Positions 28,072-51,091 of a stretch of DNA of 64,000 bases are shown one piece after another (position 1 is the first letter of the stretch; each line of letters opens with the position of its first letter). The DNA lies in the IMG/VR virus record IMGVR_UViG_3300032020_000845, positions 1 through 64,000 of that record; one strand, 5' to 3'. The DNA comes from a virus. The notes under the pieces are model-generated. The model saw nothing but the letters and a program-made list of their open reading frames with translations, had not been told where the DNA came from and made no database searches. Position numbers and translations under genes: made by a program.

Positions 28072-28095
28072 TTTGTGTATAATATATAAATGATA
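28072..28095 (+). promoter_or_regulatory. Conserved phage promoter motif
   Basis: tttgtgtataatatataaatgata, identical at 30074..30097; RBS follows. Confidence 0.75.
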
Positions 28096-28114
28096 AGAAA
28101 AAGGAGGAAGAAAT

Positions 28115-28258
28115 ATGAATAAGTTAATTTTGTTATTTGTTGGACTTTTGACTATTTGTCCCAACCTTTACTTCTTCTTCTTTCTTTTCCTTCTTTTCCT
28201 TTTCTTGTCTTTTTCTTTGTTGTGCAATAGACCTAGAAAAGGGCTAGGAACAAGATAA
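28115..28258 (+). CDS. 47-aa hydrophobic peptide / lipoprotein-gene remnant
   Basis: AAGGAGG RBS; MNKLILLFVGLL matches the start of the 48185 gene; continues into a pyrimidine-rich tract. Confidence 0.45.
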   Translation: MNKLILLFVGLLTICPNLYFFFFLFLLFLFLSFSLLCNRPRKGLGTR

Positions 28259-30072: not shown

Positions 30073-30097
30073 TTTTGTGTATAATATATAAATGATA
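30073..30097 (+). promoter_or_regulatory. Conserved phage promoter motif
   Basis: ttttgtgtataatatataaatgata followed by AAGGAGGT. Confidence 0.75.
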
Positions 30098-30113
30098 TAA
30101 AGGAGGTAGTAAA

Positions 30114-30230
30114 ATGAAAAACTATGATACGTGGTATAAAAAATTTTTAATAGTTGTTGGGATAATTATAATAGTTGTGTGGGGAGGATATATAGTAGGT
30201 TTATTAATCGGACCAATAATATTGAAATAA
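30114..30230 (+). CDS. 38-aa single-TM peptide
   Basis: Perfect RBS; MKNYDTWYKKFLIVVGIIIIVVWGGYIVGLLIGPIILK. Confidence 0.55.
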   Translation: MKNYDTWYKKFLIVVGIIIIVVWGGYIVGLLIGPIILK

Positions 30231-30249
30231 TAAACAAAGGAGACAAAAA

Positions 30250-30942
30250 ATGAAAAGAGTTTTTTTAATGTTGGTAGCAATTATTTTTGTATGTATTTTT
30301 TTCCAATTTTTTAACTCAGAATCGGTTGCTGATACTCGTGATAAATATTGTGTTGGAGATACTCTTTATCATTTAGCTGGAAACCCTGCTGCTTTATTAT
30401 ATAGTAACGTTCTTGGTAAAGGGGGCAAGAAAATTTACTTAGTTGGGGGAGATGACAAAATAATAATTAGGGAGTTTTACAACTATGACTCAAGTTCAAT
30501 AGTAGGTGACTTTCATATAACAAATCTTGGCTCTCTTGGAGGATTTTATGTAAAAATTATTTCTTCTGGGGATGATTCTGTTTTGTATGGTTTTATATAT
30601 ATTGACGATTTCCTCGGACTTAAATTAACGAAAGACTCACCTGAACAAAAAGAAGAGCAACAAAAACAAAAAGAAGAGCAACAAATACTAGTTGATGCTA
30701 AAAGACTCAAAGAAAGACTCAAAGAGTTGCAGGTGAAATATGGAACAAAGTTTGGAAAACTTATTTTTGAAAATCAGATTGTGTTGAATATGAATAAGGA
30801 AATGGTTAGAGAAAGTTGGGGAAGTCCAGAGAGAATTAATAAAACTGTTAATAGATATGGGGCACATGAACAATGGGTTTATACTAATTATTATCTCTAT
30901 TTCGATGATGGTATTTTAACAACTTGGCAATCGTTCCGTTAA
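30250..30942 (+). CDS. Secreted protein with C-terminal SmpA/BamE-like domain
   Basis: Signal peptide; MNKEMVRESWGSPERIN...EQWVY...YLYFDDGIL. Confidence 0.65.
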   Translation: MKRVFLMLVAIIFVCIFFQFFNSESVADTRDKYCVGDTLYHLAGNPAALLYSNVLGKGGKKIYLVGGDDKIIIREFYNYDSSSIVGDFHITNLGSLGGFYVKIISSGDDSVLYGFIYIDDFLGLKLTKDSPEQKEEQQKQKEEQQILVDAKRLKERLKELQVKYGTKFGKLIFENQIVLNMNKEMVRESWGSPERINKTVNRYGAHEQWVYTNYYLYFDDGILTTWQSFR

Positions 30943-30997
30943 GGAGGAAAAATAAAGAAAATCATTAGACAAATAAAAAGTAAAGAGGAGTGAAAAA

Positions 30998-31147
30998 ATG
31001 ATTTTAGGGGTTATAGAAGTAATAGTAATAGGAGTGTTGATAATAGGTAGTGTGGGAACATCAATACTAGGAATTATAAGTTATTTTTATTGGAAAGAAA
31101 AGGAGAATTTTATTGTAGAATATATTGCTCAAAATGTAAACGATTGA
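30998..31147 (+). CDS. 49-aa membrane peptide
   Basis: GAGGAG RBS; hydrophobic N-terminal 30 aa. Confidence 0.5.
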   Translation: MILGVIEVIVIGVLIIGSVGTSILGIISYFYWKEKENFIVEYIAQNVND

Positions 31148-41598: not shown

Positions 41599-42066
41599 AT
41601 GAAATGTTGTTTTGGAGGACTGTGTAGAGAATCTGAATATGTTAGTGTTGGAAAGGGCGTGTGCAGTTTTTTAATATTAGATTTAGGAGTATTACATCGT
41701 ACTGTTAGTATGGAGAAAGATGAATTGGTGTTAGATTTTACATCTCTTCTTTTGTTGTTGGAATTTATATTGTTAAATCCTTATTTATTTAAACATTTTT
41801 ATTCTCTTGAAGTATATGGATCTAATAATGATGTTTTAAAATATCTTAAACAAAATAAAGTTCCTGCGAAAATTAGATCTTTGAAGGAAATGGTGATGTC
41901 TTTTATTAAACAAAACCCATATGTAAAAGTTAGTTTTTTGAAAATTTCTAAAGAAACGAATCCGATATTTTTTAAAGTTGCTAGTTTGCCAATTGATATG
42001 AAAATGTCAGAATATGTTAAAAGTTTGATGGAGGTTATTAGTGATCCAAATAAAAATCAGGAATAA
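41599..42066 (+). CDS. Degenerate RNase HI-fold protein
   Basis: Pattern CFGG..G.G..SFLI / LEVYGS / V.F..I.KE.N aligns by eye with RNase HI, but the acidic catalytic residues are missing. Confidence 0.4.
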   Translation: MKCCFGGLCRESEYVSVGKGVCSFLILDLGVLHRTVSMEKDELVLDFTSLLLLLEFILLNPYLFKHFYSLEVYGSNNDVLKYLKQNKVPAKIRSLKEMVMSFIKQNPYVKVSFLKISKETNPIFFKVASLPIDMKMSEYVKSLMEVISDPNKNQE

Positions 42067-48050: not shown

Positions 48051-48137
48051 ATGTTAAAAGGTTTTATAGATTATTTGCTTATTGTATTGTGGATTAGTTT
48101 TATTCTTTATTTTTGGTATGAATGGCTTCGAGAGTAA
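48051..48137 (+). CDS. 28-aa membrane peptide
   Basis: GAGGAG RBS; hydrophobic. Confidence 0.45.
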   Translation: MLKGFIDYLLIVLWISFILYFWYEWLRE

Positions 48138-48140
48138 ATA

Positions 48141-48165
48141 TTTGTGTATAATATATTAAAATGAA
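48141..48165 (+). promoter_or_regulatory. Conserved phage promoter motif
   Basis: tttgtgtataatatattaaaatgaa upstream of the lipoprotein island. Confidence 0.75.
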
Positions 48166-48184
48166 TGGGAAAAGAGGTGAAGAA

Positions 48185-48481
48185 ATGAAGAAGTTAATTT
48201 TGTTATTCGTTGGTCTTTTGATTGTATTATTCAGTTTTAGTTGTTCCAAATGTTCCACCTGTCCTGGAGGAGATATGTGTGGAGATGTTAATGGTGATGG
48301 TCAAGTAAACCGGAAGGATTGGATTTCTTTGTCGAATTATCTATTTAATGGCGGTTCTATGGTTTGCCTAACCTGCGCAGATGTCAATTCTGATCATAAG
48401 ATAGACATGGAGGACGCTACTATTTTGTCACATTATTTGCTTGATGGAGAACCCGTACTTAATTGCTCGTTAGAAGAATAA
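48185..48481 (+). CDS. Lipoprotein with a dockerin type I domain
   Basis: Signal plus FSFSC lipobox; CGDVNGDGQVN..D...L.NYLF.GG ... ADVNSDHKID..DA..L..YL. Confidence 0.85.
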   Translation: MKKLILLFVGLLIVLFSFSCSKCSTCPGGDMCGDVNGDGQVNRKDWISLSNYLFNGGSMVCLTCADVNSDHKIDMEDATILSHYLLDGEPVLNCSLEE

Positions 48482-48552
48482 GAAGCTAAAAAAGAAAGTT
48501 ATTAGGATTAGAACAAAGTAGTAATAGAAGAGATATAAAAGGAGGAAGTAAA

Positions 48553-49086
48553 ATGAAGTTCACAAAAATTTTGTTAGCAGTAGTTTTAGTTGGTTTTATG
48601 TGGTTATCAGCCTTTGGATTTGATCCTCCAAAGGGATTGAAATGGAATATGGCATTCGTTGAAGTTGATTCTGTTTTGCAATTAAAATTGAAACCTTTAG
48701 GTGAGTTCCGAGGGTATCATATTTTTTCTTGTGGAAATATGTTATTTGGGTTTTTAAATACAAACAAATTAGCAGTTGTCAGGGCAGATACTTTCTTTTA
48801 CGAAAATTCACTTGAAAATGCAAACAAGTTTATTGATAGTTTAGAAAATGTGTATGGAGATACCGTCCTTGTTTTTGGTGAAATTGGAATAGAAGAAGAT
48901 CTATATTTTAAATTTGATATTGTTAAAAGGTATTTTTTTGTGGATGCGGACACTTCACAACTTTTAGTAGTTAGGTCAGATAAATCTTCAAATACTCTTT
49001 CTTGGATAAGAGTACAATATGAATCTCCTCTTTTTGTACAATTAAAAGAAAAGGATAGAAAAAAAGAAATTAATTTTGGGAGATAA
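48553..49086 (+). CDS. Secreted protein
   Basis: Signal peptide ending SAFG; mature region starts FDPPKGLKWNM. Confidence 0.65.
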   Translation: MKFTKILLAVVLVGFMWLSAFGFDPPKGLKWNMAFVEVDSVLQLKLKPLGEFRGYHIFSCGNMLFGFLNTNKLAVVRADTFFYENSLENANKFIDSLENVYGDTVLVFGEIGIEEDLYFKFDIVKRYFFVDADTSQLLVVRSDKSSNTLSWIRVQYESPLFVQLKEKDRKKEINFGR

Positions 49087-49115
49087 ATATTAAAATGAAA
49101 GAAAAGGAGGATAAA

Positions 49116-50177
49116 ATGTTAAAGTTTAGTTCTCTGGTATTAGTGTTGTTATTGATGTTTATTCCTAATTGTTCTAAAAATCCGGTTATTTCTCAGGTTG
49201 AACCGAAAACAGATATAACAACTTACAGGTTGATTACTGATCCATACATGAGAATCGAAACTGATACTGTTTTTGTTATCGATACTATTTTCACTACAGA
49301 CACTGCTATCGTTGCTATTGATACAATTGCTACAATGAGAGGGGATCTAGATTTAGATGGAGATGTTGATTGGGACGATTGGGGTAGCTTAAGTGAGCTT
49401 TTAACGTATCCCAAAGTACCCTATGGAAAAAACATAGATGTGAATGGAGATGGTAGAATAGATAATGGCGACTTAGTGTATTTGGGAAATTACTTGCAAG
49501 GAACGGTCATGGTCTACATCTATGACACGACTATTATTTTCGACACGGCCTTTGTTCCAGATACTGTATTTCAGTCATACGTTGTTGTTATTGTTGATAC
49601 TATTTTTATAGCTGATACCGCTTTTGTTATTGATACTGTTATTAATACTACTTTGATTGCTACAATGCGTGGAGATTTAGATTTAGATGGAGATGTAGAT
49701 TGGGATGATTACAGTGATTTAAGTGAACTCTTATCTTATCCTAACGTACCTTATATAAAAAGTGCGGATGTAAATGGTGATAATAAAGTAAATAATAACG
49801 ATCTGGTATATCTAGGGAAATATTTACAAGGAACAGGACCAGCACCAATATCGGATACGTCCTTTGTTTATGATACTATTTTTATTCCAGATACGATATT
49901 TGTTTTTGATACTACTTTCATTTCAGATACGTCCTTTGTTTTAGACACTGTTTTTACGATTGACACTGTTATAGTTGTTGATACTGTTTTTAGTGTTATC
50001 GATACTATTATCGTAGAAGGGCAAGCCCCGATCTCTGATATGATTTTTATATACGATACTACCTTTACTCAGAACGTGAGGTTTGTTCTAGACACTCTTT
50101 TTGTCGCAGACACTATTTTTACATATGAGAAGAATGTTCATAGTATAAAGGATAAGAAAGAAAGACTCAGGAGATAA
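49116..50177 (+). CDS. Lipoprotein with two dockerin domains and Asp-Thr hexapeptide repeats
   Basis: Signal plus Cys (IPNC-SK); two copies of RGDLDLDGDVD..D...L...DVNGD..(I/V)...DLVYL..YL; 22 DT dipeptides. Confidence 0.85.
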   Translation: MLKFSSLVLVLLLMFIPNCSKNPVISQVEPKTDITTYRLITDPYMRIETDTVFVIDTIFTTDTAIVAIDTIATMRGDLDLDGDVDWDDWGSLSELLTYPKVPYGKNIDVNGDGRIDNGDLVYLGNYLQGTVMVYIYDTTIIFDTAFVPDTVFQSYVVVIVDTIFIADTAFVIDTVINTTLIATMRGDLDLDGDVDWDDYSDLSELLSYPNVPYIKSADVNGDNKVNNNDLVYLGKYLQGTGPAPISDTSFVYDTIFIPDTIFVFDTTFISDTSFVLDTVFTIDTVIVVDTVFSVIDTIIVEGQAPISDMIFIYDTTFTQNVRFVLDTLFVADTIFTYEKNVHSIKDKKERLRR

Positions 50178-50180
50178 AAA

Positions 50181-50363
50181 ATAAATAGAAAAGACGTAAT
50201 CGGATATATTATCCACATATTAAAAAAGATATTTTCGCGTAAATATCGTCGATATTTACAGTATGTTGACTTGCAAGCAAAGATTGCTAAAATGGAACAT
50301 ATGATAGAGTTGAAGTTAGATCCATTTAAAGCAGTTAAAAAAATTGATGAAAAGAATTGGTGA
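50181..50363 (+). CDS. 60-aa ORF with ATA start (non-canonical start or decayed gene)
   Basis: AGGAG 7 nt upstream of ATA; its stop overlaps the next ATG (TGATG). Confidence 0.4.
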   Translation: MNRKDVIGYIIHILKKIFSRKYRRYLQYVDLQAKIAKMEHMIELKLDPFKAVKKIDEKNW

Positions 50364-51091
50364 TGATAAAAGATAAGAATTTTATAAATACCATTGAAAC
50401 ATACGAATCTATTAAGAAAATTATTAAGCCTGGTGATGTAATAAATCAATCAAATAGTCCAGAATGGTGGCAATTTTGGTTAGCATTTACTCATTTAGCA
50501 ATTAAATGGTATCAAAGGGAATTATTTGGAAGCAATTCTATTTGGAAAGATACTCATAGTATGTTATATTTAGATGAGAATAATACTTTTTCTGTTGAAT
50601 TTCCAAAAGTTGTGATGAAACCTCTTCGAGATTATTATTTATCAGATTTTACTATTTATAGAATGGACCTGACCAATCTAAACGAAATATGTGTTGAGAT
50701 CTTAAGGGATACTGCTTTGCAAATGATTGGGGAGGATTACGATGTTGGACAACTATTAGATATTGGAATAAACGAGATATTAGGATATCATTTTCAACGG
50801 AAGTTAAGTCTTTTTGATTTTGGAAGAAAAAGAAAGGTCTGTAGTGTGGGGGTTAGAATTTGTTTTGAAAATCTCGGAAATCAAGTTAGGACACCATTTG
50901 GGAAATCAACAAAACCTGGTAAATGGCTGTTCCACGATTTGAATCCAAGCATGTGGACTAAAAGAGAAATTGAGGAATATAGAGGAACAGATGTGGAAGC
51001 AACATCTCCAGCACATTTTGCTAATTCTAATTATTTTTGTAATGAGTTTAGATTAATTGCTAAGTTTAGTAAAGGAAAACAAATACTTTAA
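50363..51091 (+). CDS. Permuted papain-like NlpC/P60 (YaeF/YiiX-like) protein
   Basis: KPGDVI ... THSMLY ... DYD ... VCS, with His before Cys. Confidence 0.6.
   Translation: MIKDKNFINTIETYESIKKIIKPGDVINQSNSPEWWQFWLAFTHLAIKWYQRELFGSNSIWKDTHSMLYLDENNTFSVEFPKVVMKPLRDYYLSDFTIYRMDLTNLNEICVEILRDTALQMIGEDYDVGQLLDIGINEILGYHFQRKLSLFDFGRKRKVCSVGVRICFENLGNQVRTPFGKSTKPGKWLFHDLNPSMWTKREIEEYRGTDVEATSPAHFANSNYFCNEFRLIAKFSKGKQIL

Follow-up and report, generated by a model that had tools for sequence, protein, structure and literature searches.

Predicted lipid-anchored dockerin proteins in a promoter-led gene island of an uncultured tailed phage

The question raised by a short gene island in an uncultured virus is what a phage might gain from exporting dockerins that carry no enzyme. 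To our knowledge, the pairing of dockerins with cohesins is known almost only as the principle by which cellulosomes are assembled. The island lies in IMG/VR virus record IMGVR_UViG_3300032020_000845, a contig of 106,979 bp with a CheckV completeness of ~55%; the stretch considered here, referred to as the window, covers positions 1 to 64,000 of that record, its first 64 kb. Three open reading frames (ORFs) make up the island (Table 1). ORF1 encodes a leader and a single dockerin, ORF2 encodes a secreted orphan protein, and ORF3 encodes a leader and two dockerins embedded in a repeat. The dockerins are genuine, and a tentative answer to the question is that they may be tethered to the membrane of the host and bind cohesins on its surface.

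Dockerin modules behind lipoprotein-like leaders

All three modules are genuine type I dockerins and not generic EF-hands, since they pass the Pfam cut-off for Dockerin_1 (PF00404; 22.9 bits) while the EF-hand models fail, and since ORF1 aligns to dockerins of solved structure. EF-hand_1, EF-hand_5, EF-hand_6 and EF-hand_7 score 12-18 bits against cut-offs of their own of 25-30 bits. Residues 31-87 of ORF1 align over both segments to solved type I dockerins (3UL4_B, E 1e-8; also 1DAQ). Each module consists of two tandem segments of ~22 residues in which a 12-residue Ca loop is followed by a helix, and there are six Ca-loop signatures in all, two of them in ORF1, three in ORF3 by a strict pattern, and a fourth in ORF3 (DVNGDNKVNNND) recognised by eye. 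An earlier note on this DNA had identified the modules as dockerins and had allowed for generic EF-hands instead; the profile searches came out for dockerins on both counts. The dockerins of ORF1 and ORF3 are ~39% identical and differ at helix positions which we take, from textbook numbering, to give specificity in clostridial dockerins, and they may address different cohesins.

The phage modules resemble the type I dockerins of cellulosomes (PF00404; 3UL4_B, 1DAQ, 2MTE) in being ~60 residues long and in their two segments, both of which have a Ca loop of the D-x-N-x-D-G type and a helix. They differ from them in their setting, as the module follows directly on a lipobox-like leader in ORF1 or sits inside a repeat stalk in ORF3, with no enzyme or carbohydrate-binding cargo, and as the likely host is a diderm bacterium of the Fibrobacterota-Chlorobiota-Bacteroidota (FCB) group rather than a cellulolytic clostridium. 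ORF1 differs further in its extra Cys residues, which suggest disulfides. Besides the dockerins, searches of ORF1 and ORF3 returned no Pfam or NCBIfam domain, and neither the carbohydrate-active enzyme nor the carbohydrate-binding module by which a cellulosome would be recognised.

The two dockerins of ORF3 are the product of an old duplication, and both copies have been maintained by purifying selection. They are 73% identical in amino acids and 71.5% identical in nucleotides, and the age and the selection follow from a pS of 0.71, which is saturated, beside a pN of 0.17 (dN/dS ~0.09).

ORF1 and ORF3 are probably lipoproteins, lipidated at Cys20 and Cys18, respectively. Both leaders have an n-region and an h-region, and in both the h-region ends in a Cys. 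The canonical lipobox of signal peptidase (SPase) II is [LVI][ASTVI][GAS]-C. At the end of the ORF1 leader (..LFSFS-C) only the -1 residue fits this pattern, and at the end of the ORF3 leader (..FIPN-C) the -1 residue is itself non-canonical. In a family of bacterial lipoproteins with D-T repeats (see below), however, the invariant Cys comes after N, S, G or Q, and because these relatives alternate at that position the N-C of ORF3 would take the place of the canonical S-C or G-C. Lipidation is supported by this variation, by the position of the only Cys in ORF3 at the end of the h-region, and by the seven Cys of ORF1, one at the end of the leader and six beyond it. The six further Cys suggest that disulfides could form within the predicted mature ORF1 of 78 residues. 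The earlier note had described ORF1 as a minimal lipoprotein and ORF3 as a lipoprotein with two dockerins; the leader plus one dockerin of the former stands, as do the two dockerins above cut-off and the leader ending in Cys of the latter, but neither lipobox is of the canonical kind.

ORF3 carries 22 D-T motifs with a strict six-residue period, divided by the dockerins into three runs. The motif for O-glycosylation in Bacteroidota is D(S/T)(A/I/L/V/M/T) (PMC8550257), and 20 of the 22 D-T-x triplets of ORF3 fit it. The density of this sequon in ORF3 is 5.56 per 100 amino acids, 18 times the density in the phage proteome (0.31), in which ORF2, with three sites, ranks third. The repeat probably forms an extended, glycosylated stalk. 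No match to ORF3 was found in INPHARED by tblastn or in IMG/VR by peptide patterns, and its sole PHROG match is a weak one between repeat run 3 and PHROG 5070, a family of unknown function. ORF1 finds only itself among 5.8 billion proteins, with no homologue of near its length, and gives three weak tblastn matches in INPHARED.

The secreted protein that had been placed between the two lipoproteins is confirmed by the Sec signal of ORF2, whose leader has a plausible SPase I site with cleavage probably at SAFG/FD. ORF2 and ORF3 are each preceded by the ribosome-binding site (RBS) AAGGAGG. ORF2 has no relative among 1.8 billion representative proteins and matches nothing in Pfam, PHROG or NCBIfam, and the ESM Atlas returns only unnamed look-alikes. 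The possibility that ORF2 is a cohesin was rejected, as the whole contig gives no PF00963 signal at E <= 1.

The premise of the earlier note that dockerins are unfamiliar in phages was too strong. A degenerate DNA pattern for G-D-V-N-G-D-G matched at least 120 IMG/VR stretches, and a home-made hidden Markov model found at least ~25 ORFs with a full dockerin among the matches listed; Pfam upheld 8 of the 10 ORFs tested. These ORFs include GH25-dockerin-LysM, Amidase_3-dockerin, peptidase C10-dockerin and dockerin-FGE-sulfatase proteins, a 95-aa protein, and a protein in which an unassigned N-terminal region of ~180 aa is followed by the dockerin (L123; the other loci with fusions to enzymes or other partners are L054, L041, L152, L080 and L070). 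Two small ORFs that consist of a leader plus a dockerin resemble ORF1 and fall below the Pfam threshold (L151, L091). None of the dockerin-bearing contigs among the matches listed is related to this phage. The GH25-dockerin-LysM and Amidase_3-dockerin endolysins likewise hold genuine Dockerin_1 modules in phage genomes, and on such endolysins the dockerin may be a cell-surface targeting module. The dockerins of these endolysins are, however, joined to lytic enzymes, and none of the IMG/VR dockerin proteins examined is lipid-anchored with dockerins as its only recognisable modules. What is unusual in the island, judged from sequence, is a protein outside the virion that is exported, apparently has a lipid anchor and shows dockerins as its only recognisable modules. 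A literature search gave no account of function for any phage dockerin, and no lipid-anchored, dockerin-only phage protein was found in the literature and collections searched.

Table 1. Features of the dockerin island and of the related upstream cassette (positions in the window)
Feature	Position	Strand	Remarks
Paralogous cassette	28072..28258	+	Promoter motif, RBS and leader as in the island (MNKLILLFVGLL...); heads a 47-aa hydrophobic ORF
Gene for 28-aa hydrophobic peptide (MLKGFIDYLLIVLWISFILYFWYEWLRE)	48051..48137	+	Good RBS; ends at the promoter motif; may or may not belong to the unit
Promoter-like motif TTTGTGTATAATATATT	48141..48157	+	Includes a perfect TATAAT; its 14-mer core is present in five exact copies in the contig
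ORF1	48185..48481	+	98 aa; leader MKKLILLFVGLLIVLFSFS-C, Cys-rich linker, one dockerin; 7 Cys
ORF1 dockerin	48281..48442	+	Two intact Ca-loop signatures (DVNGDGQVNRKD, DVNSDHKIDMED); Dockerin_1 46.5 bits (46.5-47.5)
ORF2	48553..49086	+	177 aa; Sec signal, beta-rich orphan (low-confidence prediction), three D[ST][AILVMT] triplets
ORF3	49116..50177	+	353 aa; leader ..LLLMFIPN-C, three D-T repeat runs parted by two dockerins, basic C-terminal tail
D-T hexapeptide repeat run 1	49263..49337	+	4 units; period 6
ORF3 dockerin A	49341..49496	+	Dockerin_1 24.2 bits; Ca loops DLDLDGDVDWDD, DVNGDGRIDNGD
D-T hexapeptide repeat run 2	49524..49649	+	6 units; period 6
ORF3 dockerin B	49671..49826	+	Old internal duplicate of A; Dockerin_1 25.6 bits
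D-T hexapeptide repeat run 3	49854..50126	+	12 units; period 6

A promoter-led module of the phage

The source of the DNA is a large uncultured tailed phage, and the island is a promoter-led module of its own. The contig has a guanine-plus-cytosine (GC) content of 31% and a GC skew that is positive throughout, and ORFs on the + strand cover 96% of its 107 kb. Its genes encode glycosyltransferases, an aminotransferase, helicases, DnaB, a UvsX-like recombinase and an SbcC-like nuclease. The family A DNA polymerase of the phage is at most 34% identical to that of any cultured phage, and a search of IMG/VR with peptide patterns from the polymerase gave no match. The island is flanked by queC-DUF366-HAD-dUTPase on one side and by a 244-aa gene followed by the DNA polymerase gene on the other.

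The contig has five exact copies of the sequence TGTGTATAATATAT, all of them on the + strand, between genes, and 25-45 nt upstream of an ATG led by an RBS. When up to 3 mismatches to the 16-mer motif are allowed there are 13 matches where 4.2 are expected. One of the exact copies stands right before the island genes, as had been claimed for it. The copies at 28074 and 48143 have not only the motif in common but also the RBS and the first ~13 codons (MNKLILLFVGLL versus MKKLILLFVGLL), a duplicated stretch of ~80 nt that extends over 28074-28150 at the upstream site and 48141-48225 in the island. The start of ORF1 is placed at 48185 because it aligns there with the paralogous cassette at 28115; the RBS of ORF1 is GAGGTG, 7 nt upstream of this start. 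The 47-aa ORF of the upstream cassette is very hydrophobic (MNKLILLFVGLLTICPNLYFFFF...) and is possibly a decayed or minimal membrane peptide.

Three of the five promoter copies precede small hydrophobic, membrane or secreted genes, and the copies inside the window sit in the replication module. From these two observations it can be inferred that the repeated promoter drives the island genes together with the replication module, which would make their expression early or middle. The phage also has a weak sigma-70-like gene at 42041. A second promoter-led envelope island at 30076-31147 encodes a 38-aa transmembrane peptide, a 230-aa secreted protein that falls outside the Pfam and PADLOC families, and a 49-aa transmembrane peptide.

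The domains and the type of repeat in the island are bacterial in origin, as they would be if the island were host DNA that had lately been captured, or misassembled into the contig, with no function in the phage. The probability of this is close to negligible. The island is uniform with the rest of the contig in GC, GC skew, strand and RBS style, it is flanked by dUTPase and DNA polymerase genes, it has no close bacterial homologue (the top dockerin identity is 45%), and ORF3 has been under purifying selection since its old internal duplication. That the DNA is the phage's own also follows from the cassette of promoter, RBS and leader, which has its second copy 20 kb upstream in the same contig. 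Misassembled host DNA, against which the earlier note had cautioned, is excluded for practical purposes by the uniform composition, the duplicated cassette and the purifying selection.

The neighbourhood brings up a further explanation, in which the island would be a lysis cassette with ORF1 and ORF2 as a spanin-like outer-membrane lipoprotein and its inner-membrane partner beside a peptidoglycan peptidase. The gene downstream (50357-51091) does belong to a phage-typical permuted NlpC/P60 / Peptidase_C92-like family, ORF1 is small, Cys-rich and lipoprotein-like, and small hydrophobic peptides are encoded near the island. Several features make such a cassette very unlikely all the same. The lipoprotein gene comes first, which is opposite to the usual order of i-spanin then o-spanin, and ORF2 is predicted, at low confidence, to be beta-rich with a cleavable signal rather than a coiled-coil membrane anchor. 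Moreover, the body of ORF1 is a whole dockerin, the unit lies in the replication module under a promoter common to genes of the helicase region, and no PHROG lysis family is matched. A two-component spanin was rejected on the gene order, the prediction for ORF2 and the replication-module setting. The product of 50357-51091 is 244 aa long, has no signal peptide and falls in Atlas clusters that are 67-100% viral; it could be a lytic or another cysteine peptidase.

Dockerins, cohesins and repeat lipoproteins of a candidate host class

The only matches to ORF3 among the 5.8 billion proteins are short lipoproteins with D-T repeats and one protein with the same repeat that is sorted by the type IX secretion system (T9SS). 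The short lipoproteins have a leader of the form ..x-N-C-[SA]-x-P-L-[DE], in the style of the ORF3 leader, followed by D-T repeats of six residues, and they share a conserved domain at the C-terminus. In a scan of 185,579 species, with one genome per species, the family was present in 7 metagenome-assembled genomes (MAGs), of which 4 are titled Zixibacteria, 2 Ignavibacterium or Ignavibacteriales, and 1 Deferrimicrobium. Five of the 7 belong to one and the same GTDB class, in which 94 of 285 genomes carry the family. Two loci titled Ignavibacterium sp. and Ignavibacteriales (L005, L006) share the GTDB class of the Zixibacteria-titled MAGs, and their NCBI names are probably wrong.

The D-T lipoproteins of this class (P0002, P0004-P0007; L154-L183) are like ORF3 in their leader, x-[NSG]-C-[SA], and in their six-residue D-T runs, which fit the O-glycosylation sequon equally well. 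They differ from it in having the conserved C-terminal domain, of ~90 aa, and in their genomic setting. At nine D-T loci (L005, L010, L157, L163, L166, L168, L169, L171, L178) a gene for a secreted protein of ~330 aa precedes the D-T gene in every case, frequently overlapping it, and the product carries an OmpA-like peptidoglycan-binding domain (PDB 3TD3, E 3.5e-6). Neither this partner nor the D-T lipoprotein has a Pfam family. ORF3 lacks the C-terminal domain, has two dockerins instead, and is preceded by the unrelated ORF2; a relationship of ORF2 to the OmpA-like partner was rejected at an hhalign probability of 0.2%.

Genomes of the same class are rich in dockerins and also encode cohesins. 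In five of them (G001-G005) there are 12-127 Dockerin_1 matches and 3-8 Cohesin matches each, and Cohesin scores above the Pfam cut-off in 86 of 101 sampled class genomes versus 1 of 14 control genomes. The two cohesin proteins viewed (loci L024, L026) each consist of a signal peptide, one cohesin and a type IX C-terminal sorting domain, and by analogy with Bacteroidota such single-cohesin proteins may be sockets anchored at the cell surface. Since the class that shares the leader and repeat of ORF3 is thus rich in dockerins and has T9SS-anchored cohesins, cohesin partners for the phage modules are plausibly present in it.

The class also has counterparts of ORF1. One locus (L033; G003:C16:42000-49000) contains at least 3 tandem genes for secreted proteins of 96-113 aa that consist of only a leader and a Cys-bearing dockerin, and that are 37-43% identical to the ORF1 module with part of the Cys pattern in common. 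One bacterial dockerin-only protein was counted to have six Cys, equal to the six non-leader Cys of ORF1. Because the tandem proteins match ORF1 from residue 1, ORF1 is, as far as sequence can tell, a phage-borne form of a kind of protein that bacteria already have. The bacterial proteins differ from ORF1 in having SPase I-type leaders with no Cys at the cleavage site and in being encoded by high-GC genomes, and the class genomes that hold them also hold the cohesin sockets. On the strand opposite to the dockerin-only genes, the same locus encodes a 404-aa protein with two N-terminal dockerins. A literature search returned no paper naming both Zixibacteria and dockerin. The host is likely a Zixibacteria-like bacterium of the FCB group, as a candidate only, and the low-GC genomes of the class gave no homologue closer to ORF3 than did the others.

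It could be argued that the phage modules are Ca2+-binding domains of dockerin fold that have no cohesin partner, for example calcium-stabilised structural parts of periplasmic lipoproteins, and that the island consists of envelope 'morons' with unrelated functions. For many dockerins outside cellulosomes no partner is known, lipoproteins sorted by Lol typically face the periplasm, and in the candidate host class dockerins greatly exceed cohesins in number. Such a role is nevertheless quite unlikely, given that cohesins are nearly universal in the class and that both duplicated segments and all Ca-loop signatures have been kept under purifying selection.

Possible roles of the exported dockerins

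The explanation favoured here, to which we give a little less than an even chance, is that exported, lipid-tethered phage dockerins bind cohesins of the host and alter its surface display, perhaps blocking adsorption. The phage would send three proteins into the host envelope, of which ORF1 and ORF3 would be exported and lipidated at the Cys residues named above. Their dockerins would bind, with Ca2+, the cohesins on type IX-anchored surface proteins of a low-GC, Zixibacteria-like FCB host, and the lipid anchor would hold these dockerin 'plugs' at the infected cell. By occupying or cross-linking the cohesins the plugs would then change what the host displays at its surface. The most likely pay-off, though the least certain part of this explanation, would be a block to adsorption of further phage or to the loss of progeny on debris and on cells already infected.

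A role in exclusion is attractive because of the analogy with Llp of phage T5, a small phage lipoprotein that blocks the receptor FhuA (PMC9586334; bioRxiv 10.64898/2026.03.26.714494). Llp, as well as Cor of phages phi80 and N15, would be like the island proteins in being small phage lipoproteins that are made soon after infection and act on a component of the host surface (PMC9586334). The island proteins have no sequence relationship to Llp or Cor, however, and the target proposed for them is a cohesin, whereas Llp itself resides in the outer membrane, at its inner leaflet, and its receptor is a beta-barrel protein.

Several findings weigh against this explanation. Both lipoboxes (F-S-F-S-C in ORF1 and F-I-P-N-C in ORF3) are non-canonical, and lipoproteins held on the periplasmic face would leave the dockerins out of reach of surface cohesins. 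No dockerin is present in the available virion genes of the phage, from a contig that is ~55% complete, and the 107-kb contig has no cohesin (PF00963, E <= 1); there is thus no sign that cohesins are the receptor of this phage. The similarity of the D-T repeats to those of bacterial lipoproteins could be convergent low complexity. With regard to the host, the class loci sampled have 36-65% GC compared with 31% for the phage, and 20 kb of phage DNA compared with the 285 class genomes gave only chance-level matches, none of them CRISPR-like or near-identical; the best DNA match, of 30 out of 32 nt, was rejected as a CRISPR spacer since it is a stretch coding for a signal peptide. No PHROG or PADLOC family matches ORF1 or ORF2, and ORF1 to ORF3 show no homology of the Llp or Cor type. 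AlphaFold2 models made without an alignment are unusable for both ORF2 (beta-rich, low confidence) and ORF3, with predicted local distance difference test values (pLDDT) of 41 and 33, respectively.

Two further readings in which the dockerins do bind cohesins can be envisaged. It is somewhat unlikely, though the same structural evidence would speak for it, that the dockerins place phage proteins in surface assemblies of the host, or bring cohesin proteins to the membrane, in the service of adhesion or aggregation, nutrient capture or glycan display. ORF3 is scaffold-like, with two plugs on a long stalk that has 20 sequons of the O-glycosylation type, the phage encodes glycosyltransferase and aminotransferase genes, and the D-T lipoproteins of the host class are conserved envelope components that always stand beside an OmpA-like gene. 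Against placement it can be said that the proteins have no catalytic or binding module besides the dockerins, and that ORF1, which is purely dockerin, would make a better competitor than cargo. The other carries the favoured explanation further and has the bare dockerin and the double dockerin on its glycosylated D-T stalk act as decoys. Soon after infection these would saturate or cross-link the T9SS-anchored cohesins of a Zixibacteria-like host, so that dockerin-borne surface proteins are stripped off or masked and other phages excluded, any that adsorb through cohesins among them. A decoy role had been proposed in the earlier note, of whose interpretation the true dockerin nature of the modules, their predicted export and the plausible presence of partners are supported. 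We consider the full decoy reading unlikely; if true, it would be the first cohesin-dockerin system that we know of to be hijacked for phage exclusion.

The island thus joins a phage that has stand-alone, apparently membrane-tethered dockerins with a bacterial class of like architecture that is saturated with dockerins and has putative surface cohesins. The D-T stalk hints that O-glycosylation sequons of the Bacteroidota type are used beyond Bacteroidota, and by a phage. Should these plugs dock onto the host sockets, display by cohesin and dockerin would serve as a surface system of general use in an FCB phylum that is uncultured, and also as a battleground between phage and host.

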